DNA of 60,000 bases from Botryllus schlosseri (GCA_051294905.1 CM119371.1:35838001-35898000); one strand, 5' to 3'; shown: positions 8,661 through 55,662, counted from the stretch's first letter. Program-made: numbers and translations. Notes: a model not told the origin generated them from the sequence alone.

Positions 8661-10653
8661 CGTTTGTTAGCTTTGTTCCGTTCGTATGTCCCTGCAGTCA
8701 AACCAAAATACCAAAAACTATATATCTTTACAACCACCTGAAAGACGCATTAATGTAGAAGCCTTGGATCCAACGACTATGTGGATAGGCCTTCGTAAAT
8801 CATCGTAAAAAGCGATCTATTCGGAGATATACTACAACTGTCACGACATTTGCTGACGCACATCCATCTCGAAGCTATTCGCTACCGTCACAGTTTGCAA
8901 TTTGTCATTTGGATAGCCAAGAAAAGGAATTAGGATTTAAACCTCCCGAAATTCTAATGATTGGTAATTCCTGCTGCGGACATTTACCTAGCACCCAAAC
9001 ATCGTATACCGTTTACAGCTGATATCATTCATCTCGGAAAGGGCCCGTCAGTATTTGCAAGAGCTGATTCCATTATAAAACGAGCCATTACTTGAAATAA
9101 AGAAGCTTTAAATATTGACGAAAACTATATGGTGTATCTCTGCTGCACGACGGTAACTACACTACACCACACCGTTTCTAATTAAAATACCGTATATTCA
9201 GCTGATAAAAATGTGTTTTAGAGTGAATTCTCTTGATATACCGTACCACGACATGACATAGGCCTTTCTGTTCCGCCTACTGATATATACCGTTTCTTTT
9301 TAATAGCTTGTTCGGTTTATGTTTCCTTGCTGCTACTTGTGTTTCAATGAACGTAGCCTACACGTGTTTCGTATTTGCGTATAAGGCCAAGGTGGATGTT
9401 CGATTAAAAGACTATAAAGACTATACTTCAATTATTTACATCTTACGGCAATCGTGTAGTGCTTTGAAATGATGTAATTCTAAATACAGTGAACTCAATC
9501 AGAAGCAGACATGGGGTGATTACTTCATGATTGTAATCGATTGCGATTACGATTACTTCTGAATGACGCGATTACGATTACGATTACAGCAAATTCAAGA
9601 AGAAGTCGATTACGATTACGATTACATTGGAAAAGTAATCACGATTACTCACGATTACATTTATTTTGCATCTTGGAAGCTATGTCAGAAGCCAATATAT
9701 GGATTGCGCTGAAGAGGCCTAATGAGATAACAAACTCCCTTTAAAAGAGATGCGTCATTTGCTTGTTACGTCATAATGTACCCATTGCCCATTTCTATGG
9801 AGTTCAATTTATCGCACCCAATGATTTGCATTCTTGCCAGGGCCATAATTGCCGCACCCTAAATTTCCCAATAGGGTGGGGAGCGAGCTCGAAAAAGGGG
9901 ACTGAAAAAGTATTTCGTAAACCAACATAAGTTATAGAGTATTTTCGAGTGATCTAATTAACTTGAAAATCCTCTCTAAATCAGTGATTCCCAACCGCGG
10001 CTCCGAGCTAGCCTACTTGCGGCTCCCATTGACGTTGGAAAATCCAACAAAAATATTATAAAATCAAGTTAGAACAAACAAAAAAAATGATATTCAAAAA
10101 TTACACTTGCTTGGATTGGAATATGGAGTTTATAATTAAGGGTGGAGACCAATTCCTTTGCTGTCGAGTAGCGATTCTCTACTCAGCAACGATTTCGTTA
10201 CTCAACTCACGTCAAAAAGTATGCTCACACTCAAATGCGTTTGGATCGTTACTCAAATTTAAGTATGCTCATCATCAGACTAAATTAAGTGCAGGTGCAC
10301 TGTAAACCTAAACGCGTGCATTTATGCACCAAAATAACACACAATATTCGAATTTTTTTTAGATGCCACATTGCGTGGTAGCGATGTATGTCATAATATT
10401 GTGTGGTCTGAAGTGGCGTGTCCGTACCTATCACTGCAGAGCTCGAAATTATGTACCTGAAATGCCTCCACAGGCTCTGGAAAAATATTTTATTTTAAAA
10501 GAATCGGTTGTAAAATGTACGTTAAAAGTGCAAATTGCCGTTATAAATATGACAAGAAAAATTGAAAACAACAATTTTTTGACACTGTAAGACAGGATTT
10601 TATACAATAATAACAGAGCTTCTTGGAGGTAAAGAACTTCAATATACAATTGA

Positions 10654-11247
10654 ATAGTATGTTCATATTGAAATGAGCCCGAATATTTTCGGCTGACACT
10701 CGTCAGGGGTAATCGTCAGTAACTAGGAAAGAATTGGAAAGAACATTGTTTATCAACAAAATCGTATCACAAAATATGATGTCACCAGCATGAAATTTCG
10801 AGAGAGCGTTCAGTGCACTATTCCGATGCAGCTGGTACAGGACCTCCTTCTGTTGACAAAGTTCCGGCTGGTGTATTTTGATAAGTGAACCACAGTATGC
10901 TAATCAAAGTACTAGAAAAACTCCAAGTCACTCGCGAAACGTTCAACGCCAACATAGAGATATACAACAACCCAATCGCAATAGTGGAAGTAAAAGGACT
11001 AATAGCAGCGGAAATCACATGTATAAAATACACCAGCCTAAACTCTGTAAACAGGTTTTCGTGTTCCAGCTGGAAATAGTGCACTGAACGCACTCTCTCT
11101 CGAAATTTCATGCTGATGACGTCATATTTTGTGATACGATTGTTGATATACAATGTCCTTTCCAAATCTCTACTAGATTTGCTGACGATTACCACTGACA
11201 AGTGTCGACCGAAAATATTCGGGTTCATTTCAATATGAATATACTAT
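10654..11247. mobile_element. Fold-back MITE with about 170-bp TIRs
   Basis: atagtatgttcatattgaaatgagcccgaatattttcgg...cagtgcactatt inverted at ...ccgaaaatattcgggttcatttcaatatgaatatactat; fragment also at about 26903. Confidence 0.85.
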
Positions 11248-12040
11248 GTAACAGTAATAACAGTATAAAAGAACTGGATTCGGAACTAAAGCAAAGTGTA
11301 TGAACAGTAATGTTGCCAATAAACATTGTTTCTCACGAATTGACTAGTTACATGATCAAATGATTGAATTGCCAAAAAAACATAGTAAACCAATTTTGGT
11401 TTAACAGTATGTTATTTTGGAAAAGCCTTAATGTACAGTGCCACTAAAAACGAAAAGTTTACAAATTGAATGCATAGCAAAAAGTCTAGCCACAAAAAAG
11501 ACAAATTATTTTGCAAATGCAAAAAATAACAAAATCCACAATGTGCAGGTACCAAAAGAAAGCAGTACTCACAGCACAAGTACTTGGAGCAAGGGAGATT
11601 AATTAGCCTACATTTTTTCAATCGATTGCTGGGCATTTTGATATCTTTTCCAAGAATTGACGGACTTGTTCAACTGAAATCCCGATTTTTATCACCAACA
11701 AGGACACATTGAATGAATGGCATTATTTGAAAGACCTTGGGATAACTAAGATCTCAGTAGTAGCATGCTACGAGATCAATTATCATCTCAAGCGGTCTTC
11801 TTTGGTTTTCGGATCTGTGCTTGATGGTGATGCCATTTGGCCGCCATCCACGATTGTTCATCTCCATTCTCATGACGTGCAATCAAAAGATGAGGAGTCA
11901 GCTTTGAAGTCGGTAAATCGACTGTATGTGCCTGGAATTAAAACAATACGTTGGCTTTAAATTATTTTGCTAAATATTCACGTGCAAATCCAGAGCACAT
12001 GACCAACTTCAGCTAGAAATGCTTACAGGAGACTTCTCAT

Positions 12041-12533
12041 CAGGGATGTAATGACTCGAGTAATGACTTTCTCATGACTCGGGTCATTTTCTCAGAACAC
12101 AAAAATGACTCGATTCGACACAATCTGTGTATTGACTCGACTCGAGTCATTACGCATGACTCGAACCAAGTCATATGACTCGAGACTCAGATGACCAAGA
12201 TCGACATTTCATTGTAATTTCAAAGAATAGTAAAGTGACCACACTATTGAGATTTCGTCTATTGGTACTGGTACTTAAAATGAGATCAGAAACTGCTACA
12301 AATGAGGAAAATGAATATATTAACATGTGAACCATTCGATATCAACAACTGGGTTACCAAGACTTTAACTGGAAGCTGAGCCGTCGACACAATGACTTGG
12401 ATTCGAGTCATAACACCATGAATCGGACTCGAACCTCTACTTGTTGATTTTGACTCGGACTTGACTCGAGTCAATCCTACAAAACGCGAGATCGAGTTGT
12501 GACTCGGAGCCTTGTGACTTGGTTACGACACTG
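12041..12533. mobile_element. GACTCG-family hAT MITE (493 bp)
   Basis: TIRs CAGGGATGTAA...TTACGACACTG; exact TSD CTTCTCAT. Confidence 0.9.
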
Positions 12534-12585
12534 CTTCTCATATTAAAGATTCAAGTGTAGTTGAATCGGCGAATAGTTTGAAGGG

Positions 12586-13042
12586 GCACTGCACTCTAAA
12601 AATCATGTCGTCTCAAATTGACGGGCGAAACGAGAAATTTTTTTAGGCCGCAGCCATTTTCTTCAGAACGCCACCGTAAAGAAGCTGCAATTTATTGAAT
12701 TTTCCACATCGGAATCATGCTCCAGCAGTCACGCAGAAATCGAACTTTATATCGTTGTCAGCCGATGTTATTATGAAGGAAATATGTCGTACACGCGAAG
12801 GTGATTTAGATACCGCGTTCAACGGAAGATGTTCAGTCAGGAGATTCATGTCAAAATCAGGCCTAGTGTATTCTATTTTTTTGTCGATTTCTGCCTGACT
12901 GCTAGAGTATGATTCCCCTGTGGAAAATTCAATAAATTGCAGCTCCATTACGGTGGCGTTCTGAAGAAAATGGCTGCGGCCTGAAAAATTTTCCCGTTTC
13001 GCCCTTTAAGTTGAGATCACAATAGTTTTTAGAGTGCAGTGC
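12586..13042. mobile_element. Fold-back MITE with about 160-bp TIRs (possibly Kolobok-like); a further left arm at about 13220-13325
   Basis: gcactgcactctaaaaa...cagccattttcttcagaacgccaccgtaa inverted at ttacggtggcgttctgaagaaaatggctg...tttagagtgcagtgc; TTAA-like flanks. Confidence 0.8.
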
Positions 13043-16000
13043 ACAGTTAACAAGCTTAGCTCCAAAGGGCAAATTGATTAAAAGTTGATATATTATTTGA
13101 TTATAAAGCATTAATTGTGTTCAGATGCATAAATTTCTCTACATCATCAGAATTTTAAGGGGTAACAATGAACCTCGGACTTCGTTCGATCATAACTTGT
13201 TAGTTGCTCAATCTTAACCGCACTGCGCTATAAAAATGTTGTGGTCTCAAATCAACTCCCAGGTCGAAAAAAATTTGTCGCAGATATTGTCTTCAGAAAG
13301 CCACCGTAATGGTGCTGCAATTAAATTAGGGTTAACATACGATCTCCTTTAGGAGGATTTGTCCTCCTTTTTCAGGTTTTTGAAATTGTCGTCCTAGGAC
13401 GCCCAAATGTCTTCCTTTTTGGTAACTCCAATACTGTTAGTGTAAAAATCCTCCTTCAAAATATGATAAACATAAATTAAATGAATTTTGCATAAGACCC
13501 GTTACGCTCGAGCTTCCGCGTTTCTAGTGCGTTAACTTCGCCATCGCATATTTTCGCAACGGGTTAAGAATCGATGACGCGCAGCCACGTCAGTTGGTCT
13601 TAATACAAAATTTTGCAGCCCCATTACGTCGAGCGCAGTGTTTAGCATTGCATAATTTACCTTCGTTTTGGGACGGCTCAAGAATTTCGATCATATCTAA
13701 GGATTCTATTTTCTAGAAATTCTATGTATATCTAAACTGAAGCAGATCCATACTAGACTGGTAGCAAATCTTACCTGACAAAGACACATCGCACTCAAAC
13801 CATGGTTCGACTTTATTTTCTTGTCTATTCGAGAGCTTTCTGCAGTTCGAGCAGGATATGAATTTCATCGTCTTCTGTTCCCTGCGAACAATTAGAATCA
13901 TAATAGACAGGTGAAGGACTAATAAGAACCATATTAGATAGGCGAGGAGCATTCCTGCAAAGTTTCCGTTCCAGCCATCACATTCCATTTCAGATAAAGG
14001 CAAGTTTGGGCATTAGCGCTGTACGCAAGTTGTGGAGTTACTGATTAGATGCGCGCTATCTAGTTTGCTATCATCTGAAGGCTACAGATTCTTGTCTGCT
14101 TTAGACACTCGTATTCCCTCGGCGTCACTTGTCAGTGTTTTATTTGTTATTAATACTGCGCATTGTGCAGTACACGGGGTTGAATTACGTTGTCAAAAAT
14201 TGATGCAACACGAGATTCTCGATGGCGCAAATTCTCAATTTATTCGTTAGTAATACAAACCTCTTGATCAGTCTGCTCTCCAAAAACTTTATCAAGAGTG
14301 AGAAGCATTTCCATGTACTTCTTGTGCATTTCTTCAACACATCTAGCAACCAGCAGTTGAAACTCATGTCTGATCTATTGGGAATAACAACGCATTAATC
14401 AGAGCTGTTAGTCATGAATATGCACATCACTTGAACAGGTTAGTTAGAGTGAGTAAATTCATCCATATTATTAATTTTAAAATACATAGTTATGCACTAA
14501 CTTATCTTGATACGAACATAATTAGATTTTCTTAATTTAATCATCACAATAATTGAATTATTTTTAGCATGTGGTATCACGGAATCTCATTAATCAAATT
14601 CTCTCCCAATTAGTTGAATGTTTCCATATTCTTTCAATTCTGATCATATTCATAATTCTTCTGAAAATGCCTAATTGACTATGGTATTTGGTAGTGAGCT
14701 AACAAAATTATCCGTCTCGTGCAACATTACGTACAACTTTTCAGCTATGGTGCACATACGTTAACCAATCTCATGCTCGTTCCTATGAACTAAGCTTTAA
14801 TTTGGCTAGATTCCCTTGTCATTCATAATTTCTGTCAATTTTCAAGTTTTTGCGAATTGAATAATTCTAATTGTAATCTAATTTGGAAAAAACTGCACTT
14901 TAATTCTAATCTAATTCAATTTGGAAGAGCTGAAAATCTACTAGTTGTCCAAGGCTGGTGCAGTGTACACTGTACACATGTTGTGTAATAGGAAAGTAGT
15001 GTATATTAATGCAATAGGAAGATACATGGGCAATATAATTGGTTAATTTGCCGAAGCACACAAACAATTTTATTCCACTGATTTTTGAAGTTATGACTGC
15101 AAATTGAAGTCATCTGTAAGGAATGAAAGAACTTACCAGCCTAATATCTTGCAACATTGGAAAGCTCTTCAAAATTTCAGCAACGCCACCAAATTCTGGC
15201 ACCTTCAACTGATTACGTCTGTCGTGATGAGTGTACTTCATGAGAGTGATGACATTCAGCCAATTGGCGCCAGGTCTATTGTACTCTGTTTCCAACTGCA
15301 TCTTCAATTGTTATATTAGGGTGACCTTTCGAATAACATGAAACTTATAAATGATAAAAAAATAACAATAACAATCATCCCAATCACCTGACGAGCCTGG
15401 ACACAAAGCATGCGCTCTCCATGAAAATGTACCAGATGCCTTTGTCTTTTGTCTGAGATTCTTCAACTTTTGCGACAGCTTTTTTGAGAAGTAATACTGA
15501 AAAGCATTTGATCATGAATGCACTTTAATACAAAATATATTGAATTCGGAGAGGATTCGGGCAGTAGGTCATAGTCGAGAGAGGACGGTGCTTCATACAG
15601 CAAAACAAGTACAGTGCCTTCATATTTTTGTGTCTCCTTTTACAATGGCTATGCAGAGATCTTCATATTTTGAATACACTATGCCACAGATCCTGCATGA
15701 CATGATAACACTCGGATGTTGTCTGTGACAATAAATGTGTAGACAGTAAATCGATAGTTCCGATAAAAGGGCACAAACCAAACTTTCCATCAGACATTCT
15801 ACCAAACCATATCAAGTAATTGAAACAGGTCAAGTGCAAAGAAAGATGTACATAACTTCATCTGCAAATGAGGTTTCATCACTAGATGTCTAGATCTATT
15901 ATGATATCTTCAGATGAAATTATTAAACAGCATTAGCTCTCATTTTCATGGTCTGCTCTTATGGCGCATCAAGCTGCTAGATCGAAAATAGGTAATCTAT

Positions 16001-16654
16001 ATCTACTCATACCGCTGGGCGCTGGTGCTGTATGTGAAACTCGATAACATGAACATAACATTATTTACAGATGATGTTGAAAATTTACATAAACGAATTA
16101 CCTTGCAGTAAATCAATGTGCTCCCTCCTCATTCCGTTTTGAACTAAAAACATCTCCATTTCTTCGCTATATGCTATTTAGATTCACGTAACAAAGACCG
16201 ACAGATTCACGGTATATCTCACTCACACTGGTCCTGCGTGGTAACGATCGATTGTCTCAGGATTGCGTCATACAATCACGTGACTCAGTAAGTCATGCGT
16301 AAAGAGACAGAGTGAATTTTTTATTTCATCAATGATAAAATACAAAGGGTACTACTAATAACTGAATCATTAATATACTGTTGCTCGATGGCAATGAAAG
16401 CGGTACCGGATACAAGTAAAATGTCCAACGTCGGGGTGTTTCATACATATTTGTATTATAAATTTCTTCAGTAAGTTCGGTAGGGAAATAATATGATCAC
16501 CTTATTATTTTATCGCAATCTCTTGGTATGTTGATCTGATATTTTGTTTGTAATAAACTGAAATGAGAAACAAGCGATTAACTATAAGGATTAACGTGAC
16601 TATCGTAGGTATGTAAAGTCAGATCAGAGCAAACCTCAAGACAGCGAGTCGTCA

Positions 16655-16950
16655 GAGCGAGATAGTGTAATGGTTATGCGTCCGGCTTCTCGAGCGGCAG
16701 GTCGTGGGTTCGATCCCCGGCCGGGTCATACTAAAGACTCGAAAATTGGTATCCGCAGCTATCCTGCTAGGTGCTCAGCAACCACGGCTAGCATGGAGGA
16801 GAAAAAAAACGGGGGTGCTGACTAGATCACCTCATGGGGCCGTATCGCAACTCCGTCGTCAAAGCATCTCGATGGTGCAGGCGAAAAAGAAAATCATATC
16901 TCTCAGGTATATTGGTACAGCACGCGACCATAATATCTGATCACCAACTT
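16655..16950 (+). mobile_element. tRNA-derived SINE with a Meta-domain-like central region
   Basis: A box TAGTGTAATGG, B box GGTTCGATCCC, then ggtcatactaaagactcgaaaattggtatccgcagctatcctgctaggtgctcagca, resembling the MetaSINE core as I remember it; no full cloverleaf; 3' end approximate. Confidence 0.65.
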
Positions 16951-17418
16951 ATTTGCTTGAAGCCCGGTACCACCGTCGGTCACAACCTTGGTTATTTATA
17001 ACTGTAATAACATTGTTAATTAAACACTGCAGCCTTAAGAAAAATCTATAGCTAAGGACATATCGATCAAATCACATTTGGCGAGGCTTTTCGACGTGTA
17101 TCAATATTACCGCGCTTTAGGCTGCCTGGGATGATATATCACGTCAATAGTAACTTCGTGAAGTTTCAGAGTGAAGATTAGCCAGCGACCTCTCAAACTC
17201 CCTCTCAATTGATATCCGGTATGAATGTTTGACACCGCAGGAAATTCGTCCGGAATGACTATACTGATATGCATGTGAGCTTATAGACACATCATATGAG
17301 CATTAACCCACATCTTATGACATTCCCTGATGATGTGTGGACGTGCACACAACATGGCGGATTCTCGATGTCAGATCTCAGCCGATAATATGTGTCAGCC
17401 AAATATTGTATATACCTA

Positions 17419-20400
17419 CCCAGCAAACACCCGATGTCCAGTTGACTTCCTGCGGAAAAGACGCAGGACGCCCAGTGTTACTTCCCTGGAGTGGATTTGT
17501 CGACTACTAGAAGCGTCCTTAACACTACCTGAGTTGGTCTACTATGGACGTGAAGCGACTCCATATGGACTCATTGGATCTGCTGTGAACGTGACGTGAC
17601 TCCCTATGGATGCGTCAGACCTACTGTGGACGCGACGTGACTCCCTATGGATATGTCATTTACCACCTGTTCTATTCCTCAGGATTACCATATCACGACT
17701 CCCCTCCTAACCTGGTGCAATTACATGGAATTCAACATCATATAAACTAACGAACTGTTTATATTGGGTTACTGTAAAACGACAATTGCAAAATACAAGT
17801 ACAACATTAACTAATGAACTATTACTGGTAAACAAAGTTCAGGCTTACGTGAAAAATCGATCAGGAAATCACTACGAATAAATGTGTCAGTGGGATTTTG
17901 CATATAACAGCAAGTTCTAAGTCAATTTTATATTACCATTACAAACATTTCAATTGAAGTGCATCATGAAATTAGAAATAAACGTGTCACATGACTTTGA
18001 AAAAGTACAACTGCTAATACAACTAAAACAGGGAAAAGCATGGAGCAATCATAAGTAAAATTTACATTGCATATTATAAAACGATGCATCATTTGCACCG
18101 CATCATGTTAAGAGCGCGAGTGCGTATTCGCAATAAACTTGGTAGCAACAACAGTTTTCTTCTTGGTCTTTGTTTTGCCTGAAACATATACAACAATGTC
18201 AGCAAATCATTTGTAGAGCCACTCTGCTGACATAGCACATGAAATTTGCGTCAGGGCTGCTTCAATTTCTATTCCCTCATGCATTAATTGTGATCCCCTA
18301 CTTCTACTTGTGCTGAGTGATAATTTATGACGATACTACAATGTCTACTCGAGTACGGGAGCTTCTGACGTTGTGATACAGAGTATGAAACCCGTCAATC
18401 AAATTATATTGTGGAAACACCTCAAGTACATACTTCAGTACTTTCCAGAACTTCTACTTTACCTAAAATAGTTTTGATAAGCCGTGTATATCGCTGCTTG
18501 AGTGCTTGAGCCCGAGTAGAAATACATTGCGTTACTCTTACTTGTACTAGACTACTGACGCTACAAATATTTCTAATTGAGTGCTGAACATGATTGCTTT
18601 CCTTATCTCTGTTTAAAAGCATACAACTACGACATTCCTCAAGTCTCCATATTTTGACCATGTCGACACTTGGAAGTAGTTTGATGTCTTGTAAATCGCT
18701 ATTTATACTATTTAGTACGGTACTAACGATGAATAGTTTGACCACCTTTATTTGGAACTTATCATCTACTACAACTAGGGCTTGCCACGAATCTGAATAG
18801 AGCAACGATAAGTCGAAACAGATGATCTTTTAGGGTACATAAATTGTATTCAACAAGAATTAGAATTCCGATTCTATGTACCACTGCGAGGCCTAAAAAC
18901 ATAGATTCGTCATATCGCAGAACACGGCACATGTAGGACATAGCTACGCACGATCGTGTGAATGACAAATGTATTGTCTCAAAGTACAATAAAATAGGAA
19001 TTATCTTAAATCTAAAAAACATTCTTCGATATGATGTAGAGCCGGTATTCATTTTCTTCGAATTCGCATACGAGATAGATATTTCAACTTTTCCTTGTTT
19101 ATAATGTTGTCACATCATATAGAGCAGAGGCTTCAAATTCAAATGTGGTCGCAGGTCAATTTCCGGATTTTTGACGACGCAGCAAGATAGGGATATTCAA
19201 TGTATAATTTCCATGTAGGCCTTATTTGACGGGAGCTTGCAGACAGGCATTCCACAAACATCTCAAGAATATAATTTACTATTGTATTATTCACGTTTGA
19301 CACGAAAAAAATCACAGTTTTGAATATTTCAATAAAATTATTTTTGTGCTGGGCATAATTTGTTAAAATAATGAGTTATAGAGATGATGCAATAGGATGC
19401 ATCATGACATCATCAAACTCTGGGTTATACTATTTCAGTTGGTGAACCTTTGACGTGTCACAGTTGTATTTTAAAATCTACTGAAATTTGATCTGGTATC
19501 AGAGCATTTGAACGGTGTAGCCTAATCCAGGTTTTGATATAGTCGTGATAAGTAGGCTGTTGCTACTGTCATTACCAAAGTCAAATTAATTCAGAATTAG
19601 ATGTTGGCTTCGATTATTATTGGAACATATCAACAACTTTAGCCATAGTAATAGCATTGTTTCTTAGCCTTAGCGATCGCACACTTCATGCTACTCATAA
19701 GATTTCTAGCAGCCCAAAATTTATTTTCAACACAATTTCTGATGGTACCTATATTAAAATCAGATAGTCAATTCACATAAAATTGCGCATAGCACGAGAA
19801 CCACAGCATATAGGTCTAATTCCACGATGCATATCGTACCACAAAAGGGTCTAAGGGCCCTGTTCAAGAACCCCTGGGATAGAATAGAGCACAAAATCTT
19901 CTTTTAGAACTTTTTACTTCATTTTGAAGTGAATTTTACAAGCCTGGTAAATGGCTAATTGTACAGTAGAAATTCAAGGCGTTGCAACTATTTAAACTCC
20001 GGTGCAAACAATATGTACTTTGACCACCAACTATGATTAAACGCTAAGAATGCCTACGCAACACCTCGACCAAATCTACTTTTTCAAACTTATTATTTGT
20101 ATACTTTCCAGAAGTGCATTATCTACTTCCATTTCGAGTAGATCTAACGCAACTTTAAAGTTGTTACCTCTAGGTGTGTATAAATCCATAACATTACATC
20201 TATTTCAGTTCAAAAGATGATTACTTTCACAGCCTCTGGTTTCCATGAAGTGTATTCAATGTTTTATACCTTTTGACTTTTTCCTGAGGATGACGCAGCA
20301 CCGATTTTACAGCAACGCTTGTTCCACGTGGCAGTAGTTCTTCCGAACGTTTTTGGTTCCAGTCATCAAGACATACTTTGTACAGTGTTCTTGACGTTGT

Positions 20401-22887
20401 TGAACACTATCAATTGAAGACATTGCCGATCTAAATAATCAAAGATATTATAATGTTTGTAGTGAAGCCATTTGTCAAGAAGCCAAGCCAGGAATCTAGA
20501 ATATCCTGTAAAAAAAAATACAATGAAGTTCAAGCTGGACCACTCGCACATTCTACTCACTACAATGACTAATCAGTAGGGCTGAGCACATTGGTATGGT
20601 TACTCAAATCTCGAACGAGTATCAATTCTTATGATTCGAGCCAAGTATGTGACTATTTTCAAGACAGCCTACTGAAATTACACGCTCTGTGCCACTCTAA
20701 CAATGCAGTTTATAATAAAATTATAGTTCCACCCAGCACGTTTTAGCAGCCCGATTGCGAACCACCGTCAATTGTATATTTCCGCATCATCGATGGCTTT
20801 TTTTTCAGGGTAATAAATTGCTAATTAATGAAATATCATAAATCATCATATAAAGTTCGTAACTTCAACTTACATAATTTAACATCTTGATCCATGAACA
20901 ATGCACCACTGCGGCGCCTTCCTCTGAAGTTTAGAACTACATAACATTGCCTGTTCAATATCTAGTCTCCTGGTAGAAATGAAGTAACTTTGTATACACA
21001 AACACAGATATGTCCCATCCATATATAGTAAGAATCCATTGATAATAAGGTTGTGTTTTCTTATCGACGGCAAGATGACCATGAGCAATCAGCCTTCCTT
21101 AGGGCCCATCCATAGCCTACTTTTTTGATACTGCTGCAATGTAGGCAATGTTTCCGTGTATATATACTAATATCGAAAGTTATAATCAAGCAATAAAAGT
21201 ATGCACGGAGGCCGTGCCAACATTGCGGTAACATTGCCAACAACCCGTCTGCACCAGGCCATGAACATGTTAAGTTTATAGAGTTTATAATTGGTTTAGT
21301 GTTTGAGTATCCTTTGATTAGAGCGAGGTTAAAGATGGGCTAACAAACTATTATAATGTTGTTCCTAAAATACCCTAAATATAAACCAATATTGCCAAAA
21401 ATTCTTACATGTTCACTGAAAGCCTCAATTATTTTATTAACGCTATTATAGATGGTTATGGTTATATACTGTTGTGGACACAAAAATACGAAAATGGATG
21501 TTAATGTGATGCTACAATCTTCATGCATCCACAAATTCAGCAATCTCACATTCCATAAAAGAACATTCCACATTTCTGTAAGCCTATACATAACATTTCA
21601 AAATTCAGTATATACCGATATGTTATAAAATACCGGTACATTACTTTATGCGGCATCTGGTTTGCTGATTGGGTCCTGCAGTCCTAGGAAATCCTTGTAA
21701 AACTTTTCACAGGATGCACATGAAATGGCAAGTTATTGCTTGTGAGACATTATGGAACAGAGCACAATAAATCAGACTTCTATGATCAATACATTATCAT
21801 ATAGTATCAAATGTAGCCTACTACAAGAATTATCGGCTTGCATGAGTTACCGATTAGCAGCGGGTCGATCAATTCCGTATGTAGGTGATATTACAGCAGT
21901 GTCACTATAATCATATAATCGAATTCATTATATCGCATCAGCAGTTCATGATGATCGAGACTATTGCTGTTCATTAAATATAGCACTCAAATACCAAGCT
22001 CCCTGCCCTTCCGGTACTCATGATAGAGACATCTCACAGTCCACGCTGTTAACGTTTCCAATTATGAACTAAACCATTACTGTGATAATTCGTCCCTCCG
22101 CCATTGCTACATACGGTGATCAAATTGAATTACACGCGCGGCGCATGCGCGATGCTCGCCAAATAGAAGAAGGCAGGCTTCTGGTTTTATGGTTGGATGA
22201 ATCTGAAGCAACAGGCGTGTTCGACTCCATTATCGAAATAGCCGAGAGGATTGCTTACTGCGTTGTTCCGTGATTGGAATAGTCATCACAATCCCATCAT
22301 GACGATTATCAAGTTCTGATATCGGAATATTTCACATGCATTACGAGTATTTGCCCCTGATGTGGGCATTTTCGACCCAGTAATGTCACAATAAAATAAG
22401 CCACTGTGTCTCTGTATCGCACATTATATCGAGCCTCTTTAGCACTGTGCGACCGCAATGATCGACAGCCGGGCTTGTGAAGTTCCACGCGATGAGAAAG
22501 TCACACCATATCAACATTCACGGCTTCACTCCACTAGATTTCACTTGTATCATGACTGTATTCAACACAACTTATTCAGCATTGACTGCAGAATAATGCA
22601 CATTTGAGTTCATAGAAACGATTTCCCAGTAAGGACATCCAAATCAACTCCTGTGTTGGTGGCATCCAGGCATCACACTATTATGACATCCACTGGAATG
22701 GTCATTGGAGACTGGCATAGGAGCACTCTTAAAGTTACTTTCTCTGGGGGTCTCTTGGAGTTACATAATTGGACGTCAATTTGTGACCTACTGAGCAAGT
22801 CCTCAGTCACTAAAAGTGGGACGTGGGACGACTGGGCACAATTGTGGACGTACCCGTAAGTCCGTGGGAGATCGGGTGTTTGCTGGG
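17419..22887. mobile_element. CCCAG-terminated (CACTA/EnSpm-type) non-autonomous element, 5469 bp, nested in element A
   Basis: 17-bp perfect TIRs CCCAGCAAACACCCGAT...ATCGGGTGTTTGCTGGG; TA duplicated on both sides; about 41-bp subterminal repeats (gtgactccctatggat) at 17545-17655. Confidence 0.85.
18434..20505 (-). pseudogene. Possible cargo gene exons inside the CCCAG element (unknown product)
   Basis: Exon 20377-20505 (ttttacag / gtatgt, phase 1-1) is compatible with open exon 18434-18792 (ttcag / gtatgt; SWQALVVVDDKFQIK...VLESTE); splicing from upstream candidate 20874-20950 creates a stop. Confidence 0.35.
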
Positions 22888-23083
22888 TATGCACAATGTT
22901 GTGTCTCATTCAACGCTGTGAATTTACAGATGGTGTTGCAACACGTTTTACAACGCTATCTGACCATCAAACCAATGGATCATTTGACTTGATTGTTAAG
23001 TTCAACGGCCGCATTGACGGAATGAATGCTTTTTTCCCCATGATGAAAATGTTTTCATGTCCTATTGTAGTTAATGTGGCCAC

Positions 23084-41424: not shown

Positions 41425-41428
41425 CAAT

Positions 41429-46374: not shown

Positions 46375-47342
46375 CAGTGATTCCCAACCGCGGTTCCGAG
46401 AGCCGCATGCGGCTCCCAGCTAGCCTTCTTGTGGCTTCCACTGAAGATTGAAAATGCCACAACAATATTACAAAATCAATTTGCAACAAAAAGATAAAAT
46501 TCATATTAAGAAATTACCCCTGCTTGGCTTGGAGTCTGGGGTTTATAAATAAGGATGGAGACCAATTCCTGTGCTGCCGTGTAGCGATTCTTTAATCAAA
46601 AACTCGCGCCAAAAGCATACTCTCACTCATATGCGCTTGGATCGGAATTCAAATTTGAGTCGGCTCACCACCAGATTTAAGTGCAAATGGTGTTACAAGA
46701 CATTTTCCAACGGTATCTGACCTTAAAACCAACGGATCATTTGATGCACACAACATGCTTATCAGCAACTTTATTGATGGGTTCAATCGCCGCATTGACG
46801 GAATGAATGTTTTCTACCCATAATGAAAAGGTTTTCAAATCTTATTGCAGTTAATGTGGTCACTGCCCTTGGTAATTATAAACTTGAGCTGCTAGACATG
46901 TAGTCGGATATCGAGCTCAAGGAATCATTTAAACTGAAGACTTACTTGAATACTTTAGCTAAGTTACTGAGGGAAAGTATCTTAACGTAATCAACCAATG
47001 CGCCCAGAAAAACGATTTTCTATTTTGATCAACTTTTATGTTATAGCAAAATGGTCAGAATCGAAAATCAATATGGCAATGGATTGAGCGATGACCAGTT
47101 CAGGCAGCTACTGCGTGGTGCATTCTCTGCAACTGCGCATCGATTTGGAACACATCTTGAAGTTCAAAGCCAATGCCAAGCTGGACATTAAATTGATGCG
47201 TGCGTAATTGATGCGTTGCTGCGTGCTTTCATGCTTTATAATTTGTGTTATACCTAATGAGTGTATTCGTGCGGCTGTACAGGTAGGCCCACTCTGAAAT
47301 TTGAAATGCGGCTCAGACACCAAAACAGGTTGGGAACCACCG
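46375..47342. mobile_element. hAT MITE (CAGTGATTCCCAACCGCGG family)
   Basis: TIRs CAGTGATTCCCAACC...GGTTGGGAACCACCG; left part collinear with copies at 9982 and 39911. Confidence 0.75.
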
Positions 47343-47399
47343 CTCTAAGCCTAGGCGATATGATTGGTAGCGTACATGATACCGAGATTTAGATCCTAC

Positions 47400-48330
47400 C
47401 AGTGTTGGGATCAAGTCACTACCTTCGAGTCACGAGTCATTTCGAGTCATTGCACATTTTGACTCGAGTCAAGTCAAGTCAATCGATTTTCAAAGGTGAC
47501 TCGAGTCAAGTCAAGTCACTCGATTTTCAGAGGTGACTCGAGTCAAGTCGAGTCAAGTCAAGTCAAGTCACGAGTCAAGTCACAATTCAAGTCAAATTGC
47601 CTTTTCGAAGTATGAGGCATGATAACGTCATTGCATTTTGCTAGCTGTCTAAAATACAGATTGAGTGGTGATTGATTTTGAACCGATGAACGAATATAAA
47701 GTTAAATATACATGCAAGAAGGCGCTGTATCGCTCACATATACGTAGAACTGCTAAACCTCAGTTTATAGTTATCAGCCAAGATAGAGAATAGATACGAA
47801 TTGATAAGATGCAATAAATTACGCATTTACAAATCGATATGATCCAATTCGAGCCTGCGCCAATGGTTGAGGACTATATAAACTATATTCGAATTCAGTT
47901 TCAATAAAACAAGAAGTTTAGCTAAGGTAAAACAGAACAGAAATTACTTTAATATACTAGTTTACGACAACGTAAGCTGTAAGCTTCGATCACTTCGTTT
48001 GCGGTCAATGTATTTGTGAGAGAACAATGGAGGCTCCGTAAAAGGCACGTTTATTAATTGATTGGTCGCTCTCACGGGTTACACCAGCGTTTCGCGAACA
48101 ATCCGAACATCTGCAAGATGCTTTGATTTTGATCGACACCTATTACTTGATGACTTGAAATTGACTCGTGAATTTTGCTCCGAGTCACGAGTCAATCCCC
48201 ATTTCTGATAGGCCGAGTCAAGTCAAGTCAAGTCATTTTAGCAAAGTGACTCGAGTCAAGTCAAGTCATACGAAAAAGGTGACTCGAGTCTGACCCGAGT
48301 CAAGTCATGACTCGAGTCATCCCAACACTG
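47400..48330. mobile_element. GAGTCAAGTC-family hAT MITE, 931 bp
   Basis: TIRs CAGTGTTGGGAT...ATCCCAACACTG; exact TSD GATCCTAC. Confidence 0.92.
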
Positions 48331-49093
48331 GATCCTACCCTAAATCTTTTTGTATGGCGACAACTTATTTTTATTGAATACTAAACTACATGCGACCCGC
48401 GAAATACCTATATACTCGGGTCGTTACTTAGCTGCAGAGCAAAGTCATATTGTTACTAGACCATTAGACCAGTGTTACTTTATTCTTTGGAAGGCACCGC
48501 ATAGGCCGCAATCACCATACCATCACATTCACCATTCCTCGAATCCTTTGCAGTTAGAAAATATCATTTACCTATAGCAGACTAGTCATGAACGAAATGG
48601 ATGAAATGAATCTCTATGAAAGCTAGCTGTTATACTGCTTCCAAATATGTAAATCAAGTCAGGGTGCTGGAAACCCCTTAAAGTCAGTAGTAAAGACGAA
48701 AATTGGCATGTTTTAGAACAACAGCAGCGCACTGACAGAAGCGAGGCATTACAATTGAGTTGCTATTCATCTGGACGAAGTTACGTATATACAAGTCGTT
48801 CTCAGTTGTAATCCGGTGGAACACTACACTCTAAATTAGAATGCGTGCAGAGGAACGCAAACTTACATGCCAAATCCGTTTTTTTTTTAAACTACCACAG
48901 AACGTGCTGGAGCCGATGTGTGCCTGGCTATCCTGTGTTTAGTGGTGGTGTGTTCATGTTGACTGGTGCAGAGCTCAAAATTAATACCAGCCATCCATGA
49001 ATTTTTACTCAGCTTAGGCTCAAAAAAGATTTTATTGCAACGAAAGATCAATACAGAACATTCATTTGCAGACGAAAATGCGCGAATTTCTAG

Positions 49094-50680
49094 CTTGCAC
49101 AATTGAAAAACTTAAGCTTTTCCAAATAGAAATAAGAACTACAGCTACAAAGTTACCATAAATTAGATCCATAATTAGAGCAAAGAAACGTTTCACTAAT
49201 TGGTGTAGAATTAGAATTATAGCGACACAGTTGTTTTTGCAAATTAGAATCTAATTAGAGAAAAAAAGCATTTCACAAATTGGTGTGGAAATAGAATTAT
49301 AGCGACACAGTTGCAACCACAAATTACATTTGAATCAGAGCAAAGAATCATTTCACAAATTGGGATAGAATTAGAATCATAGCGACACAGTTGTTATCAC
49401 AAATTAGATTCTAATTAAAGCAAAAAACATTTCAAAAATTGGAGTAGAATTACAATCCTAGCGACACGGTTGTTTTAACAAATTACTTTCTAATTAGAGC
49501 AAAGAAACATTTCACAAATTGGTATGGAATTAGAATTATAGCGACCAGTTGCAGCCACAATTTACATTTGAATCAAAGCAAAGAAGCATTTCAAAAATTG
49601 GAGTAGAATTACAATCATAGCAACACAGTTGTTTTCACAAATTAGATTCTAATTAGATCAAAAAAACATTTCTCAAATTGGAGTAGAATTGAATTATAGC
49701 GACACAGTTGTTATCACAAATTAGATTCTAATTACCGGAAAAATATTTCCCAAATTGGAGTAGAATTAGAATCATAGCGACACAGTTGTTATCACAAATT
49801 AGATTCTAATTAGAGCAAAAAAAACATTTCAAAAATTGGAGTAGAATTAGAATTATGGTAACACAGTTGTTTTCACAAATTAGATTCTAATTAGATCAAA
49901 AATACAGTTCCCAAATTGGAGTAGAATTAAAATCATAGCGACACAGTTGTTATCACAAATTACATTCTAATTAGATCAAAAAAACATTTCAAAAATTGGA
50001 ATAGAATTAGAGTTATGGTAACACAGTCGCTTTCACAAATTAGATTCGAATCAGAGCAAAGTAACATTTGAAAAATTTGAGTAGAATTTCCAAAATTGGA
50101 GTAGAATTAGAATTATAGCGACACAGTTGTTATCACAAATTAGATTCGAATCAGAGCAAAGTAACATTTGAAAAATTGGAGTAGAATCAGAATAATTACT
50201 GCAGTATATTTTCTGAATTAGACTAGAATCCAATTAGAGTAGAATTAGAAATATAGCTATACGGTAGTTGTTTTCTAAATTAGATTCGATTGAGAGCAAA
50301 GAAACATTTCACAAATTAGTGTAGCGTAAGAATTTATAGCTACACAGCTTTTTCCGAATTAGAGTAGAATTAGATTTGTAGCTCGTTTTTTTTCGAAATT
50401 AGAGTGGGATCAGAATTATAGTAACAGTTTTTTTCAAATTATAGAGTAGAATTAGAACTATAGCTACACTGTTTTTTTCCAAATTAGAGTGCAATTAGAA
50501 TTATAGGTTCCGTTGTTTTCACAAATTAGATTCGAATGAGAGAGACAAAGCACTTAAAGTAGAGTTATAATTATAGCTAATTTTTTTCAAAATTAGAGTA
50601 TAATCAGAATTTTAGCGACACATTTTTTTTCACTCTAATTAGACAACTAGACTAGTACTAGAATTGTATAGTTGTCCAAG
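49094..50680. repeat. TIR-bounded tandem array with a unit of about 80 bp
   Basis: Unit aattggagtagaattagaattatagcgacacagttgttatcacaaattagattctaattagagcaaaaaacatttcaa; ttgga recurs at 49755, 49836, 49916 and 49996; ends CTTGCACAATT / AGTTGTCCAAG. Confidence 0.85.
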
Positions 50681-50725
50681 TCAGCAAACGAAATCAAAAT
50701 CATTACTGGGATTTCTGGAATCTGC

Positions 50726-53513
50726 TCATAAAACAGAGAAGCTTGTTGGATTGAAACCCAAATTTTTGTCTCCCATCAGAACATACTGTAAAATTGACAG
50801 TATCTGGAAAACTTTTGGATATGCGGGGTCACAAACATAATAACACGCGAGAAGATCCAGCACCATCTCGAATGGTTTTGCTTTATTGTGAGACGATCCC
50901 TTTATGCGGATGCCATTCGCCACGATCCATGACTGCAAGTCACCATTTTCATGGTGCGCTAGTACGAGATGTCGAGGACTCAGCTTTGTGGCCGTTAATT
51001 GGACTGAATGGGCCTGGAATTGAAAGAAATATGTTAAGTAAAATTATATTGCCAATAATCCATGTGTGAATCGAAAGCACAAGATTTAGATTATGTAGAA
51101 TTGCCTTTATGGGACTTCTGCATAATGCATATTGAATAAAAATAGAGCTGAATAGGTCAATATAGGTTTTTGGTTTAACTCACGGAAACAAGTGATGGCA
51201 AATTCTGTCGTCACGACATGCTGTCTAGTCGTTGACATGTATGGGTTTTTCCACATAATCATAAGTTTACTAACCTTTAATGATCCATTCAGATTTGATC
51301 AGTATACCATCATACAGGTTCCTTTTGGAACGGCACAAGTATTATGTTCACATTCACTGATTCTATGCACTATATCCATGGTAGCCATCCTCATGGACTC
51401 GAAGTCAGGAAAACCAAAAATTACATTAGCAGCAGAAATGATTTTCCGTGGCGTGGGACGAAAACAAATTTACACCAGCTCATTCTAACTTAGATTTATA
51501 GCCTTATCAAAAATAATGATGTAATTGAAAAGCATTTAATAATCATTTATTTTTGGAGGCCTTCTTTCAGTTCGAGTGTTTATTGCACCGTCATACCGTA
51601 AACAGCGTCAATCAAAACATAGGCCTACCATATTTTCAGCACCCAAAAACAAAATGTGGCACACGTCTGAGCTCAACAGACCCCGAATTAGAACACATGT
51701 TTGTGGCGCAACTTGGAAATTAACAGACCCCCGAATTAGAACTAACTCAACATGCGCGCATGTTAAGCCATAAAATTTTCAAACAACTAGCTGTACTTTT
51801 GTGACGGTCTGTTAAGTTCAAACTTGTGCCAGATAGTGGCATGCAAAACGTCCAAGGTGTTACGGAAAACGCCGAACAATGTTTGCCGAAAAATCAGGAC
51901 AAGAGTCGAAATCAGTACAAATCTGACAAATCAGGACGTTATGGTACATCTATGTTCATTGTTCACACAGTTCCAGGTTAATCAAGCAGCAAATCCTACA
52001 TCTCACCTGATAAAGCGTTATCGCCCTCAAATCCTGTTGTGATTCTCAATTTCAGTTACTGCATTTCGTAACTCCCTCTGGAGCATAACCGCAGCGGCTT
52101 GTTTTCCCTACAAATAAATATAAAGTAGAAGATTTGGTTGAAGGACATTCCACTTATTGCATTCCCGTTGATATGAAGGCAAGAGTTCTGACACAACAAT
52201 ATTTAATATATAAAATTGCAACAAAAATAAACAGGATTATCCCAATTAATAAATTCATTCTAGAATAGTTAAATAATACTAACCTCTTCATCTGTCTCTA
52301 GCTCTACTCCAAATATTTCGTCAGGAGTAGCAAGTATTTCCTTCGACACTCCTCGGAACGAACATATGAAACCCCGCTCTGATCTATTACAAAGGCAAAG
52401 TGTTACTATAAAAGCAGCTATGTAGTGAGCTAAGCATGCACATTAGGGTTGTTCAAAAAAAACTTTTTTTTCCAAATCTCACTCGTCTAGTGACTAAATC
52501 GTCAGGTTGTCCAAGAAAACGATGCACACGAAATTTGACTCAATTCCAACCAGTAACGGCCGTGCAATCTTGAATTGAAATTTTTAAATTATTATTAAAA
52601 ATAAAAAAATAAAAATTCTCAAATTTTTCTGTCAACCCCATGAAATTGTTGAGCTGTCTTCAAAGACGATGCAAAGGAAATTTGAGTCAATTCCGACTTG
52701 TACAAGCGAAGTTATTCGAGTTTTTCGTTGATAATTCTCGGATTATCCTTGATCTGCAGATTATCAACGAAAAACTCAAATAGTTCCGCTTCTACTGGTC
52801 GGAATTGACTCAAATTTCCTTTGCATCGTCTTTGAAGACAGCTCAACAATTTCATGGGGTTGACAGAAAAATTTGAGAATTTTTATTTTTTTATTTTTGA
52901 TAATAATTTAAAAATTTCAATTCAAGATTGCACGGCCGTTACTGGCTGGAATTAAGTCAAATTTGGTGTGCATCGTTTTCTTGGACAACCTGACGATTTA
53001 GTCACTAGGCGAGTGAGATTTGGAAAAAAAAGTTTTTTTTGAACAACCCTAATGCACATTGCACACACACTTCTATGTGTTATATAGAGGGAACTTGATA
53101 TGAATATAATAAGATTCATTTCACTGGATAATATTAACAATAATTATTATAATAGGTTCATGAATGAAATATCATGTTTTCAACCAATGAAAATGTCATG
53201 TAATTGGAAAAACAAGTGAGTCAACTCCAAAGCAAGATATATATAACTTGGTCAAGAATTCTAGTTGTAAACCCATATTGCATCAAGTTAGAGGATTAAC
53301 TGACATTCTGAAACTCAGTTTCGATGTTACTGCAAGTTGATCTAAAAGGCAATCTACCAATATTTCTCACACTGCTGCTTGCTGTAAGAACCCTCTTGAC
53401 AACATACCGGTAATCATAACATATCGCATGTTGATATTCTTGAACGAATTACCTTCAATTATTAAAGCAATGTGTTCTCTCGTAATGCCGTACGCAATCA
53501 ACATTTTCTTCAT
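50726..53513 (-). pseudogene. Intron-containing SAM-domain / SAMD3-like pseudogene, copy B
   Basis: Exons 53453-53513 (MKKMLIAYGITREHIALIIE), about 53273-53341, 52284-52383 and 52007-52107 (frameshifted), and 50726-51013 (open: AHSVQLTATKLSPRHL...DLLACYYVCDPAYPKVFQILSILQYVLMGD); same splice positions as copy A. Confidence 0.75.
52444..53051. mobile_element. Near-perfect palindromic hAT MITE, 608 bp
   Basis: TAGGGTTGTTCAAAA...TTTTGAACAACCCTA; arms of about 290 bp around a loop of about 24 nt; exact TSD ATGCACAT. Confidence 0.92.
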
Positions 53514-54090
53514 TCCTTCCGCTATGATGAGATTAGCGACACGTTCATCCACATCCACAAAGTCACTGTACTGCGAGCTGCGACCTGTCGCTCCATTTAA
53601 ATTTGACCCTTTGACCGTGACTGAGTTCCCGCCGTTACCGAGAGATGTGAAGCGTGAATGAGAGAGAGAGAGAGAGAGAGGGATAGCAATAGAGAAATAC
53701 AGAGATGTTAATTCAGTCAACAGTCAAAAGCAGAATGCACTGATAATAGCCAGGTAACACCAACGATTACTAAACAAAGTACTTCAAAATTACATGGTGA
53801 TGACAATGATTGATTGATTGATTGATTTCTTCATTGCTATACTGCTGATATATCAATGATCAATAATGAGGAAACGCAATATAATGGAAGTCATAGTCAA
53901 GTCAGACAATCATGTGGTTGTAACAATGATATATATAATTGGGTTGAAATGATCAATTTCTTCTGCCAGTTTGGTAGGTAAATAAAATGAGAAGAGAAAC
54001 GTTCACAAAATCTAGTAAATGCAAGAAAGCGACACACTAAAATAATGGAGCGACATTGATGAAACAGCAGTCCACTTCATGGCTCCTGAG

Positions 54091-54286
54091 CAACGTGCCC
54101 TTTTAGGTACGCATGTGTGCAATTGATTTGAGCTGACACGGTCTCTGCTCACATAAATTATAAGTTGCGCACAAAAAATCCGAAGAGATGACCTTTTTTT
54201 TAGTGGTTACGCACTGTTGTCCATGGGACCGCGCAGTGAATAGGTGAGCGCTTGCTGCAGACTCGTCAAAATTAGAGGTAACATTG
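54091..54286. mobile_element. hAT MITE (CAATGTTCCCTC family, decayed)
   Basis: caacgtgccctttta...tagaggtaacattg; TSD ctcctgag / cttctgag. Confidence 0.75.
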
Positions 54287-55662
54287 CTTCTGAGCTATAT
54301 GTAAACGGGGCTAAAAGCACGCATTACTTACACGAGAGTCGTTATTACCGTTCAACATCTATTATAGAAATGCTGCATCATTTGAGAATCTATATCTTGC
54401 AGCTTAATTCCTCCCCTGCAAATAACCCAGCGGGAGCAAACGGACCCCAGGGTCATTGGGTTTACCGATGACGTCATGATCGGCACACGAGTGTACCGTA
54501 ACTTACCCTGGATGATCTGGTCATTTACCAGTGACATTACGATTACATTTCAGCAGCGTTTCCAGCGTCGACCTCACAATCCCTCTCAATCTTACTGATC
54601 TCACAACTCGTGCGGCGACTTACCGGACTATTAAAATGTATACGTAAACTCTTTCATAGTGATCAAAGCCGGCGGTAGATGATAAGATGAGAGCAGAAGC
54701 ACATATTTCGTAACTTTATCTGATGAAGTGTGGACTTGCACATATTATGACACCACTTCGGCGAAAGATTTGGGTCGACTTTATGTGTTTGTCCCATATT
54801 GCATCTTTGAATGCACAATTTTGTGTCGAAATCGATGCTTTCGATTTAGAGTGTAGGGTTTCTCTGAGCTAATATCAAGGGATCTCTGGAGGTAAAGAAA
54901 CATACCTCACTCGCACATATGACATGCGATGATACGGCCGTCTTGGCCATCATATTGGTTGCAGGTAAATAGGCATGACCAGTAGGCCTAGTCGATTTGT
55001 CACTTTTGTGATGGTACGCCGTGTGCAGTGGCGTATAGGCAGGAGAGGTGGGGTTTCGACATAGTAACCCAGTCCTTCTGAAAAGCCAATTCCATCTCCG
55101 AAATTTATAAGCTCACTGGTAAATAAGCAATGTGTATTCATGCTATTGCGTTTTGACCGCATTTCAAAACTGGTATCTTAACTGAACAGTAAAAGTGGCA
55201 CTGATTCGTAATAGATATTCCTTATGATGCTGTCGTTTTATGTGAAAATTAAAATTTATTGACTTTGTTCTTTTGGGAATCTGTTGATACCGTTAATTTC
55301 TCACGCCAGCATTATAAATCAACGTATTAGATGTGTATTGTGATTATGTTTGTCATTTTACCTCAACGAAAATTTGGGGTTACGCGAAGGCTTGCAGATT
55401 GATGTAGGTATATTCCCGGGGTTATCAAATGAGAACGAACACAACTTTATATATAATGTCAATACAACTTGCAAATCAAGTTTGATTTGATATTCATGTA
55501 AAGTTGGATGGTGAGACAAAATATCATTATTTGAATTAGGCGTGGTAGGGAAGTGTTTGGTAACCAATCAACTATAGTACAAGAAACGGAAAACGAATTT
55601 GTCAAAATATAGTAATGATTATGCCAACAAAAATGTACAATTTTCACCGCAAATATGACAGG

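Follow-up and report, generated by a model that had tools for sequence, protein, structure and literature searches.

In maize En/Spm, a single transcription unit yields tnpA and tnpD through alternative splicing, according to a background passage in PMC1636069, and the open reading frame (ORF) of the transposase lies inside an intron of the second gene. Internal deletion gives rise to non-autonomous copies that rely on the autonomous ones, and both En/Spm and dSpm/I have CA..TG ends and subterminal repeat arrays. These features appear to recur in an animal transposon family that is represented by two elements, A and B, in a 60,000-nucleotide stretch of Botryllus schlosseri DNA (G000:C1:35838001-35898000, from a 495-Mb, repeat-rich genome; hereafter "the window"). 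Intact relatives of A and B are predicted to carry two genes on one strand, a transposase and a spliced second gene with a SAM domain, which we call the helper. Very probably, A and B are internally deleted copies from a family whose intact members have both genes, and they keep spliced remnants of the element's own helper gene.

The family differs from maize En/Spm in its ends (CACTC or CACTG, not CACTA), in its target site duplication (TSD; TA, not 3 bp) and in its animal host. Its transposase matches Pfam Plavaka instead of Transposase_21, and its second protein combines SAM with a new module. No sequence similarity between the helper and TnpA was noticed, although no direct comparison of the two was made. 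SmTRC1 and other animal CACTA-like elements, as presented in the excerpt of PMC1636069 used here, share with it the animal host, 2-bp TSDs, multiple spliced transcripts and the transcription of truncated copies. SmTRC1 differs in having terminal inverted repeats (TIRs) that begin CCC and a Transposase_21 domain, and the same excerpt describes no SAM second gene for it. Plavaka and ESTA elements, in the corresponding excerpt of PMC12730594, share the Pfam Plavaka match, the C(2)C and H(3-4)H motifs, 5'-CA..TG-3' ends and 2-bp TSDs (TA in ESTA). They differ in being fungal, in the termini of PlavakaA (TGT..ACA) and PlavakaB (CATCA..TGATG), and in their extra genes, which are TET/JBP dioxygenases and not a SAM-domain protein. 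A literature search, with Repbase Reports outside its scope, found nothing tying SAM or SAMD3 to CMC transposons.

The lead to the transposase was a distant copy, L042, in which a 533-aa ORF that matches Pfam Plavaka lies upstream of a homologue of the helper's last exon, on the same strand. A genome search with this ORF scored 82 transposase matches among 205 candidates, several of them open frames of 813-836 aa that are followed, about 5 kb downstream and in the same orientation, by a helper last exon. One 10.4-kb autonomous relative (G000:C12:25356476-25366887, covered by L043 and L044), on another contig than the window, ends TA/CACTCTAAATTCG...TTAGAGTG/TA, as B does. A near-identical copy lies near C1:17164936-17172421, and a candidate autonomous copy of A type near G000:C4:2713529-2723400. 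Its transposase ORF measures 816 aa from stop to stop, with a methionine at residue 6, giving about 811 aa as a single ORF. The match of this ORF to Pfam Plavaka (33.1 bits, cut-off 26.3; E = 4.6e-8) covers profile positions 198-318 of 325 only, and a match to DUF4218 is sub-threshold (E = 0.045). The ORF has a C2H2-like zinc-finger region at its N-terminus. It also contains CRTC and HDAMH..E motifs, HDAMH being followed by LLEG, with the catalytic residues assigned by eye; motifs of this type are the signature given for the CMCT clade in the excerpted part of PMC12730594. The transposases of the autonomous relative and L042 are 51% identical, with proportions of non-synonymous (pN) and synonymous (pS) differences of 0.32 and 0.73-0.86, respectively.

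The helper gene appears to surround this ORF. The exon upstream of it ('MAEGMERFLIANGIKREHIDLIE/G', donor gtaattcg) ends in phase 1. The transposase stop codon is conserved between the autonomous relative and L042, and no more than 45 nt past it come a polypyrimidine tract, a CAG acceptor and an exon that reads '(E)NEIDESVFGTLTEGDFQKLFKVGTARRLLNLQK', the C-terminal half of SAM. This exon, at 7351-7251 of the autonomous relative, starts with the 2 nt that complete the phase-1 codon of the upstream exon. When joined by script, the two SAM exons give 57 aa with no stop, and the joined peptide aligns across the junction, along some 50 aa and at 32-36% identity, to the SAM regions of proteins P0156, P0151 and P0152; the E-values, between 1e-6 and 2e-3, refer to a database of seven proteins. 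Because the phases match and SAM continues across the transposase ORF, we place the ORF inside a helper intron that splits SAM, and we read transposase and helper as two predicted genes on one strand. An ORF in that position means that one transcription unit could yield either protein by alternative splicing. Further conserved helper exons are 'MPLPSF...YPCIK', 'YFSKKLSQKLRNLR', 'EILKSFPMLKDIRLV', a 114-nt exon 'IRAEF...DEE', a 105-nt exon and the last exon.

Element B has the following parts.

48827..54853, minus strand: element B, 6027 bp, non-autonomous, of a young multi-copy family
48825-48826 and 54854-55: TA flanks of element B
48827-48836 and 54844-54853: TIRs of element B, CACTCTAAAT
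49152..50541, unstranded: left subterminal tandem arrays, in which TIR-like words such as AAATTAGAGT(G/A) are abundant
49152-50088: array 1, an 80-bp unit repeated 11.8 times
50307-50541: array 2, 40-42-bp units
50726..51013, minus strand: last helper exon, AHSVQ...SFSVL plus stop codon, frame open, acceptor confirmed by an RNA joint
52007..52107, minus strand: remnant of the penultimate helper exon, with stops in all three frames
52284..52383, minus strand: remnant of the 'IRAGF' helper exon, its frame shifted by a family-wide 20-nt deletion
52445..53051, unstranded: nested foldback insertion, 607 bp, MITE-like (resembling a miniature inverted-repeat transposable element), private to this B copy
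53154..53189, unstranded: internal deletion junction
53453..53525, minus strand: coding part of the 5' helper exon, N-terminal half of SAM, ...AEGMKKMLIAYGITREHIALIIE/G, donor gtaattcg, ending in phase 1

The ends of B, TA/CACTCTAAAT...ATTTAGAGTG/TA, carry perfect inverted repeats of 10 bp. In the genome, its left 274 bp have 40 scored matches among 85 candidates, at 94-100% identity, and we retrieved 15 further copies as a sample of the B family. Both ends are present within a 10-kb stretch in 11 of these copies, and one end only in the other 4. All 11 two-ended copies have the form TA/CACTCTAAATT...TTAGAGTG/TA, with sizes of 5000-8567 bp, and when the window copy is counted, TA stands on both sides of CACTC...GAGTG ends in 12 of 12 B-type copies. 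The 11-mer TCTAATTAGAG, allowing at most one mismatch, has 16 matches, all of them at 49249-50644, compared with 1.26 expected in the whole window. The subterminal arrays of B are found in the autonomous relative too.

From left TIR to right TIR, B is colinear with the autonomous relative at 74-88% identity except for positions 5986-9838 of the relative. These 3.85 kb, which are absent from B, contain the transposase ORF and four helper exons. The deletion junction is crossed contiguously in 12 of the 15 sampled B-family copies, and similarity to the transposase is found in none of the 15. A more diverged copy, L039 (G000:C11:12910000-12919999), is about 20-30% diverged from B and has B's internal deletion but retains 20 nt and 5 nt that the exons of the B family have lost (see below); the lineage with this deletion thus predates the young B burst.

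RNA mapping was confined to B and used one true RNA-seq run (X23) and three contig sets whose RNA origin was guessed. It gave three introns with canonical GT..AG joints on the minus strand: 53453>52383 and 52284>52107, each from contigs of X1, and 52007>51013, from 2 reads of X23 together with contigs of X1 and X3. These joints show that the exon boundaries are real, and the B remnants still give a low level of transcripts in which the old splice sites are used. The homologue of the 5' exon in the autonomous relative is at 10176-10107. Splicing from 53453 to 52383 joins this phase-1 exon to one that is phase 0 in the intact relative, so that the message is out of frame. Exon 2 lacks 20 nt in all 13 B-family copies that cover it. 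The autonomous relative and L039 have these nucleotides in an open exon; in the B family, reading in the IRAGF frame meets a TAG stop. The penultimate exon measures 101 nt in the window copy and 100 nt in most of the family, against 105 nt in the autonomous relative, and relative to the open exon of the latter, 5 nt are missing from this exon (exon 3) in all 14 B-family copies that cover it.

The foldback insertion at 52445-53051 has arms of about 300 nt that are 95% complementary, and it is flanked by the 9-bp TSD ATGCACATT at 52436-52444 and 53052-53060. It is missing from the other B copies, and a joint 52435>53052 is found in the RNA and contig mapping. The foldback family is highly repeated, and its RNA read and contig coverage is far deeper than that of the surrounding transposon. 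An interspersed repeat of about 160-200 bp also occurs inside B (54088-54248), as well as at 55662-55856 and, inverted, at 43175-43370; its contig depth of 1350-4700 is far above that of its neighbours.

Element A has the following parts.

10298..22932, minus strand: element A, non-autonomous, decayed, of a second family with CACTGTAAACC ends
11625..11931, minus strand: remnant of the last helper exon, with an in-frame stop (ACYY-stop-DLSYPK) and frameshifts
14261..14374, minus strand: 'IRHEF...DQE' helper exon, 114 nt, open, as in the autonomous relative
15452..15493, minus strand: remnant of the 'YFSKKLSQKLKNLR' helper exon
15582..15797, minus strand: transposase remnant, zinc-finger N-terminus, residues 6-78 of the 816-aa ORF (73 aa)
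16102..16160, minus strand: 5' helper exon, N-terminal half of SAM, MEMFLVQNGMRREHIDLLQ/G, donor gtaattcg
17419..22887, unstranded: nested unrelated element, 5469 bp, in A's right subterminal region, 17-bp TIR CCCAGCAAACACCCGAT, TSD TA

The left end of A, at 10298, starts with CACTGTAAACC. Its right end, at 22932, is imperfect, with TTTACAGATG in the window in place of the TTTACAGTG of the family. No TA flanks the window copy; the other four A-family copies all have the form TA/CACTGTAAACC...TTTACAGTG/TA, that is, CACTG...CAGTG ends. Genome matches to A's right subterminal region all end at 17418. The four other copies run on past that point with TGCACAATG...GAATTTACAGTG/TA, the window counterpart of which is 22890-22932. 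Because the family's final stretch lies there, 17419-22887 is a nested element, and A's own sequence consists of 10298-17418 and 22890-22932. That A is an insertion follows from a paralogous empty site at 40209/40220, and at least 40 scored copies of the A family are found in the genome. The deletion in A is different from that in B, as relative positions 6572-9620 are missing. A is without two helper exons, those of the C-terminal half of the SAM domain and of 'MPLPSF', and the transposase stub of A occurs in an A-like copy, L041, as well.

No ORF of at least 55 aa in the nested element reaches a curated Pfam cut-off. The CCC start of its TIR resembles the animal TRC/CACTA TIRs quoted in the excerpted part of PMC1636069. 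The empty-site paralogue of A is supplied by a dispersed repeat, 9504-10278 versus 39437-40216. Two further pairs in the window are 29155-30465 versus 47290-48331 and 41425-42581 versus 55928-57085, all three pairs being 0.8-1.3 kb long and 84-93% identical. Short repeat clusters of the GAGTCAAGTC/GAGTCGAGTC type lie at 5865-5915, 29518-29669 and 47425-47581, inside larger repeated blocks.

An earlier sequence-only reading of the window had described A and B as two CACTA-like, non-autonomous elements that carry the same intron-containing minus-strand gene and no visible transposase. Its account of their anatomy largely stands. The TIRs and TA flanks of B and the right end of A at 22932 are as it gave them, A and B are indeed similar near both ends and in the last exon, each peptide it quoted is found in its place, and the multi-exon structure agrees with the three B introns. 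The CA..TG ends, the TA TSDs and the loss of the transposase compared with the autonomous relative bear out the assignment to non-autonomous, CACTA-like elements. Absence of a transposase holds for the B family (0 of 15 loci) and does not hold for A, where the remnant of residues 6-78 is encoded at 15582-15797. Two of its exon readings fail: 'IRAGF...DEE' of B is not one open frame, being broken by the 20-nt deletion, and 'ACYY-DLSYPK' of A conceals an in-frame stop, in a last exon that is frameshifted as well.

The evidence supports A and B as non-autonomous members of the CACTA-like (CMC/CMCT) group, with CA..TG ends and 2-bp TSDs. The 5'-CA..TG-3' termini given for the CMC/CMCT clade in the excerpted part of PMC12730594 are present in both families, and the duplication falls within the clade's 2-5 bp, with TA in 12 of 12 B-type and 4 of 4 A-type copies. 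The transposase motifs of the clade are found in the autonomous relative and not within the window. As in internal-deletion derivatives of the dSpm type, the ends are colinear with the autonomous element and the transposase-bearing internal segment is missing. Several neighbouring classes were rejected. Strict EnSpm/CACTA does not agree with the CACTC/CACTG ends, the TA TSD and the lack of Pfam Transposase_21. Plavaka is not among the rejected classes and is a possible affiliation: the relative's transposase passes the Pfam Plavaka cut-off over part of the profile, and the element termini differ from those of both fungal lineages, PlavakaA and PlavakaB. Tc1/mariner and PIF/Harbinger/ISL2EU were rejected despite the TA duplication, the relative's only transposase-like ORF being of Plavaka type. 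A hit to DDE_Tnp_4 in L038 belongs to a separate neighbouring element, a PIF/Harbinger fragment at L038:6376-6880 (plus strand), and gives no support to the PIF/Harbinger type. Pack-type gene capture was likewise rejected, as the exons belong to autonomous elements in two deep subfamilies. A second neighbour, at L042:3-1711 (minus strand), is a Ty3/gypsy-type pol fragment with RVT_1, RNase H, an integrase zinc finger and rve.

The helper belongs to a large family. In this genome, the last-exon peptide, which is no single-copy host sequence, has 150 scored matches among 364 candidates, from 100% down to 42% identity. Among 1.84 billion proteins, a profile built from seven last exons retrieved 202 cluster representatives at E <= 1e-3, and for 36 of these E was 1e-10 or lower. 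Most of these hits are exon-sized fragments; the long ones bear the last-exon domain C-terminally and are "uncharacterized" or "hypothetical" proteins of Saccostrea, Mytilus, Pinctada, Haliotis and Solemya, together with one eel protein. Later searches added relatives from Crassostrea and spiders. Full-length annotated relatives are 434-614 aa and contain helper parts with no transposase. Their N-terminal domain varies: Pfam SAM is found in P0151 and (precomputed) in P0156, CIDE-N in P0153 and P0141, and RING/B-box in the eel protein.

That the helper has a SAM domain, as the sequence-only reading had proposed, is indicated by Pfam and fold in the relatives and by alignment in the element's own two exons. 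P0151 matches SAM_2 at 26.3 bits (cut-off 20.5) and SAM_3 at 24.0 bits, above its cut-off. The model of P0152, with a predicted local distance difference test score (pLDDT) of 75.9, has an N-terminal SAM fold, which matches 5j8y_D with Z = 9.9 and a root-mean-square deviation (rmsd) of 2.0 A over 70 residues, and SAM or PNT domains account for almost all of this model's 50 best structure rows. Single helper exons, each SAM half included, have no Pfam hit, and none of the 115 stop-to-stop ORFs of A and B reaches a curated Pfam cut-off. A word-indexed search of the B last exon against longer proteins also gave no hit. The model of the last-exon domain is confident (pLDDT 83.8; predicted template modelling score 0.73) and consists of three strands and then three helices. 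Foldseek found no match for this model in the PDB at E <= 0.001, and the best match in a wide VIA search had Z 4.9 (3jtz_A, rmsd 3.5 A over 55 residues), with none at Z >= 5, so that the domain has no assigned fold.

The second half of that proposal, a SAMD3-like identity, fares less well than the SAM domain and is best treated as a lead. Vertebrate SAMD3 and "SAMD3-like" proteins resemble the helper family in having a SAM at the N-terminus and a long, uncharacterised C-terminal stretch after it. Queried without their SAM domains, the C-terminal parts of P0151 and P0059 both lead to a chordate cluster named "SAMD3-like isoform X1", each with an Atlas feature score of 0.85, having 195 and 202 of 256 features in common with it. 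The sequence searches returned no named SAMD3 relative, the named ones all being "uncharacterized" or "hypothetical", and the search with P0059 returned spider "hypothetical" proteins only.

Fragments of the helper last exon also occur in inverted orientation. Locus L040 (G000:C13:14016500-14026499) is a perfect palindrome with arms at 279-5117 and 5162-10000, which are at least 4839 nt long, 100% complementary and separated by a 44-nt spacer; each arm contains a partial helper last exon (residues 1-89). At 10 or more loci (on C7, C22, C4, C6, C12, C3, C5 and others), last-exon fragments form such inverted pairs, spaced about 8.4 kb. The arrangement represents a giant foldback element or else an assembly artefact that recurs.

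Between subfamilies, the last exon has pN of 0.23-0.40 and pS of 0.68-0.83, the latter near saturation. The ratio of non-synonymous to synonymous rates (dN/dS) is 0.16 for the autonomous relative versus L042, 0.43 for B versus the autonomous relative and, over 80 codons, 0.33 for B versus A, a value made unreliable by the frameshifts of A. The sequence-only reading had staked its case in part on a ratio below 1, and between subfamilies the ratio is indeed well below 1. The frame breaks in A and B point to the autonomous elements, and not to A or B, as the place where this constraint acted. The selection seen between subfamilies is most simply explained by the autonomous two-gene elements, which have the transposase.

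This bears directly on the central claim of that reading, that a non-autonomous family without its own transposase long kept a functional, spliced accessory gene under selection. Such a history would fit a last exon with an open frame in 10 of the 14 full-length B-family copies, transcripts that are spliced at canonical sites, a pooled pN/pS of 0.61 within the B family, the open 'IRHEF' exon of A and a deleted lineage that includes the diverged copy L039. We nevertheless consider it improbable and have not retained the claim. B is without four helper exons and A without two, the B splice is out of frame, the 20-nt and 5-nt losses are found in 13 of 13 and 14 of 14 of the B-family copies that cover them, A has its stop, and the last exon is frameshifted in both A and L039; open frames at 94-97% identity are in any case expected from youth alone. 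Lower still is the probability that fragments of a host SAMD3-like gene were captured by transduplication, in the manner of Pack-MULE or Pack-CACTA elements. Relatives in molluscs, spiders and the eel are annotated as ordinary "uncharacterized protein" genes, as this would predict, but two subfamilies with transposases of just 51% identity have the transposase ORF in one and the same SAM-splitting intron, introns and splice sites are kept, and the 364 candidate last-exon matches in the genome fall in many subfamilies. The gene is thus not an ordinary single-copy host gene, and the genome search both linked the termini with it recurrently and found relatives that bear a transposase.

The shared exons could also be the C-terminal exons of the transposase itself, since they lie on its strand, downstream of its ORF, and the locus is the one that gave the first Pfam hit. 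This one-gene structure has the slimmest chance of all: in both subfamilies the transposase ORF closes with a conserved stop, the exon after it carries on the frame and the SAM of the exon upstream of that ORF, and the annotated relatives of 434-614 aa have helper parts without transposase. Several observations count against deriving A and B from two-gene elements by internal deletion. RNA support is thin, with the true RNA run contributing 2 reads at one joint and the rest coming from contigs of guessed RNA nature. The SAM call in the element's own sequence comes from the 57-aa joined peptide, each half alone being without a Pfam hit. Beyond the identical 10-bp TIR, the subterminal sequences of B and the autonomous relative are just 74-88% alike. 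The deletion is common to B and the more diverged L039, so that the deleted lineage is fairly old, and the pooled pairwise pN/pS of the B-family last exon is 0.61 rather than 1, from small counts (14 distinct gap-free sequences, with gapped hits and duplicates dropped and stop codons skipped).

Derivation by internal deletion remains the explanation that we strongly favour. A and B would come from two subfamilies of one large animal cut-and-paste transposon family with CA..TG ends, TA target duplication and subterminal repeat arrays. Intact members would carry an approximately 811-aa Plavaka/CACTA (CMCT) transposase and a multi-exon helper, SAM plus a C-terminal module of about 350 aa, on one strand. 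Deletion has left B with the 5' exon and the last three exons, and a different deletion has left A with the 5' exon, a transposase stub and downstream exons; the remnants in A and B no longer encode the helper. The A and B families may have been moved in trans by autonomous copies, in which alternative splicing would give either transposase or helper. The helper could bind the subterminal repeats and bridge both ends through SAM oligomerisation, a role like that of TnpA.

The copies of A and B in the window are thus ordinary decayed non-autonomous derivatives, and the point of interest is a two-gene layout like that of maize En/Spm, in an animal and with a SAM-domain second gene. Hundreds of "uncharacterized" proteins annotated in molluscs, arthropods and chordates contain the module of about 350 aa. 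A broader proposal, which we put forward as possible but somewhat doubtful, is that this module with its swappable N-terminus (SAM, CIDE-N or RING/B-box) may be the TnpA-equivalent helper of a widespread, undescribed animal branch of CMC type, binding the repeats through its C-terminal module and joining the ends by SAM polymerisation, and that vertebrate SAMD3 may be a domesticated copy. If so, many invertebrate "uncharacterized protein" annotations would be transposon genes. If the helper family does include vertebrate SAMD3, an uncharacterised human gene would gain both an origin and a testable hypothesis, namely binding of repeated DNA together with SAM-mediated bridging.

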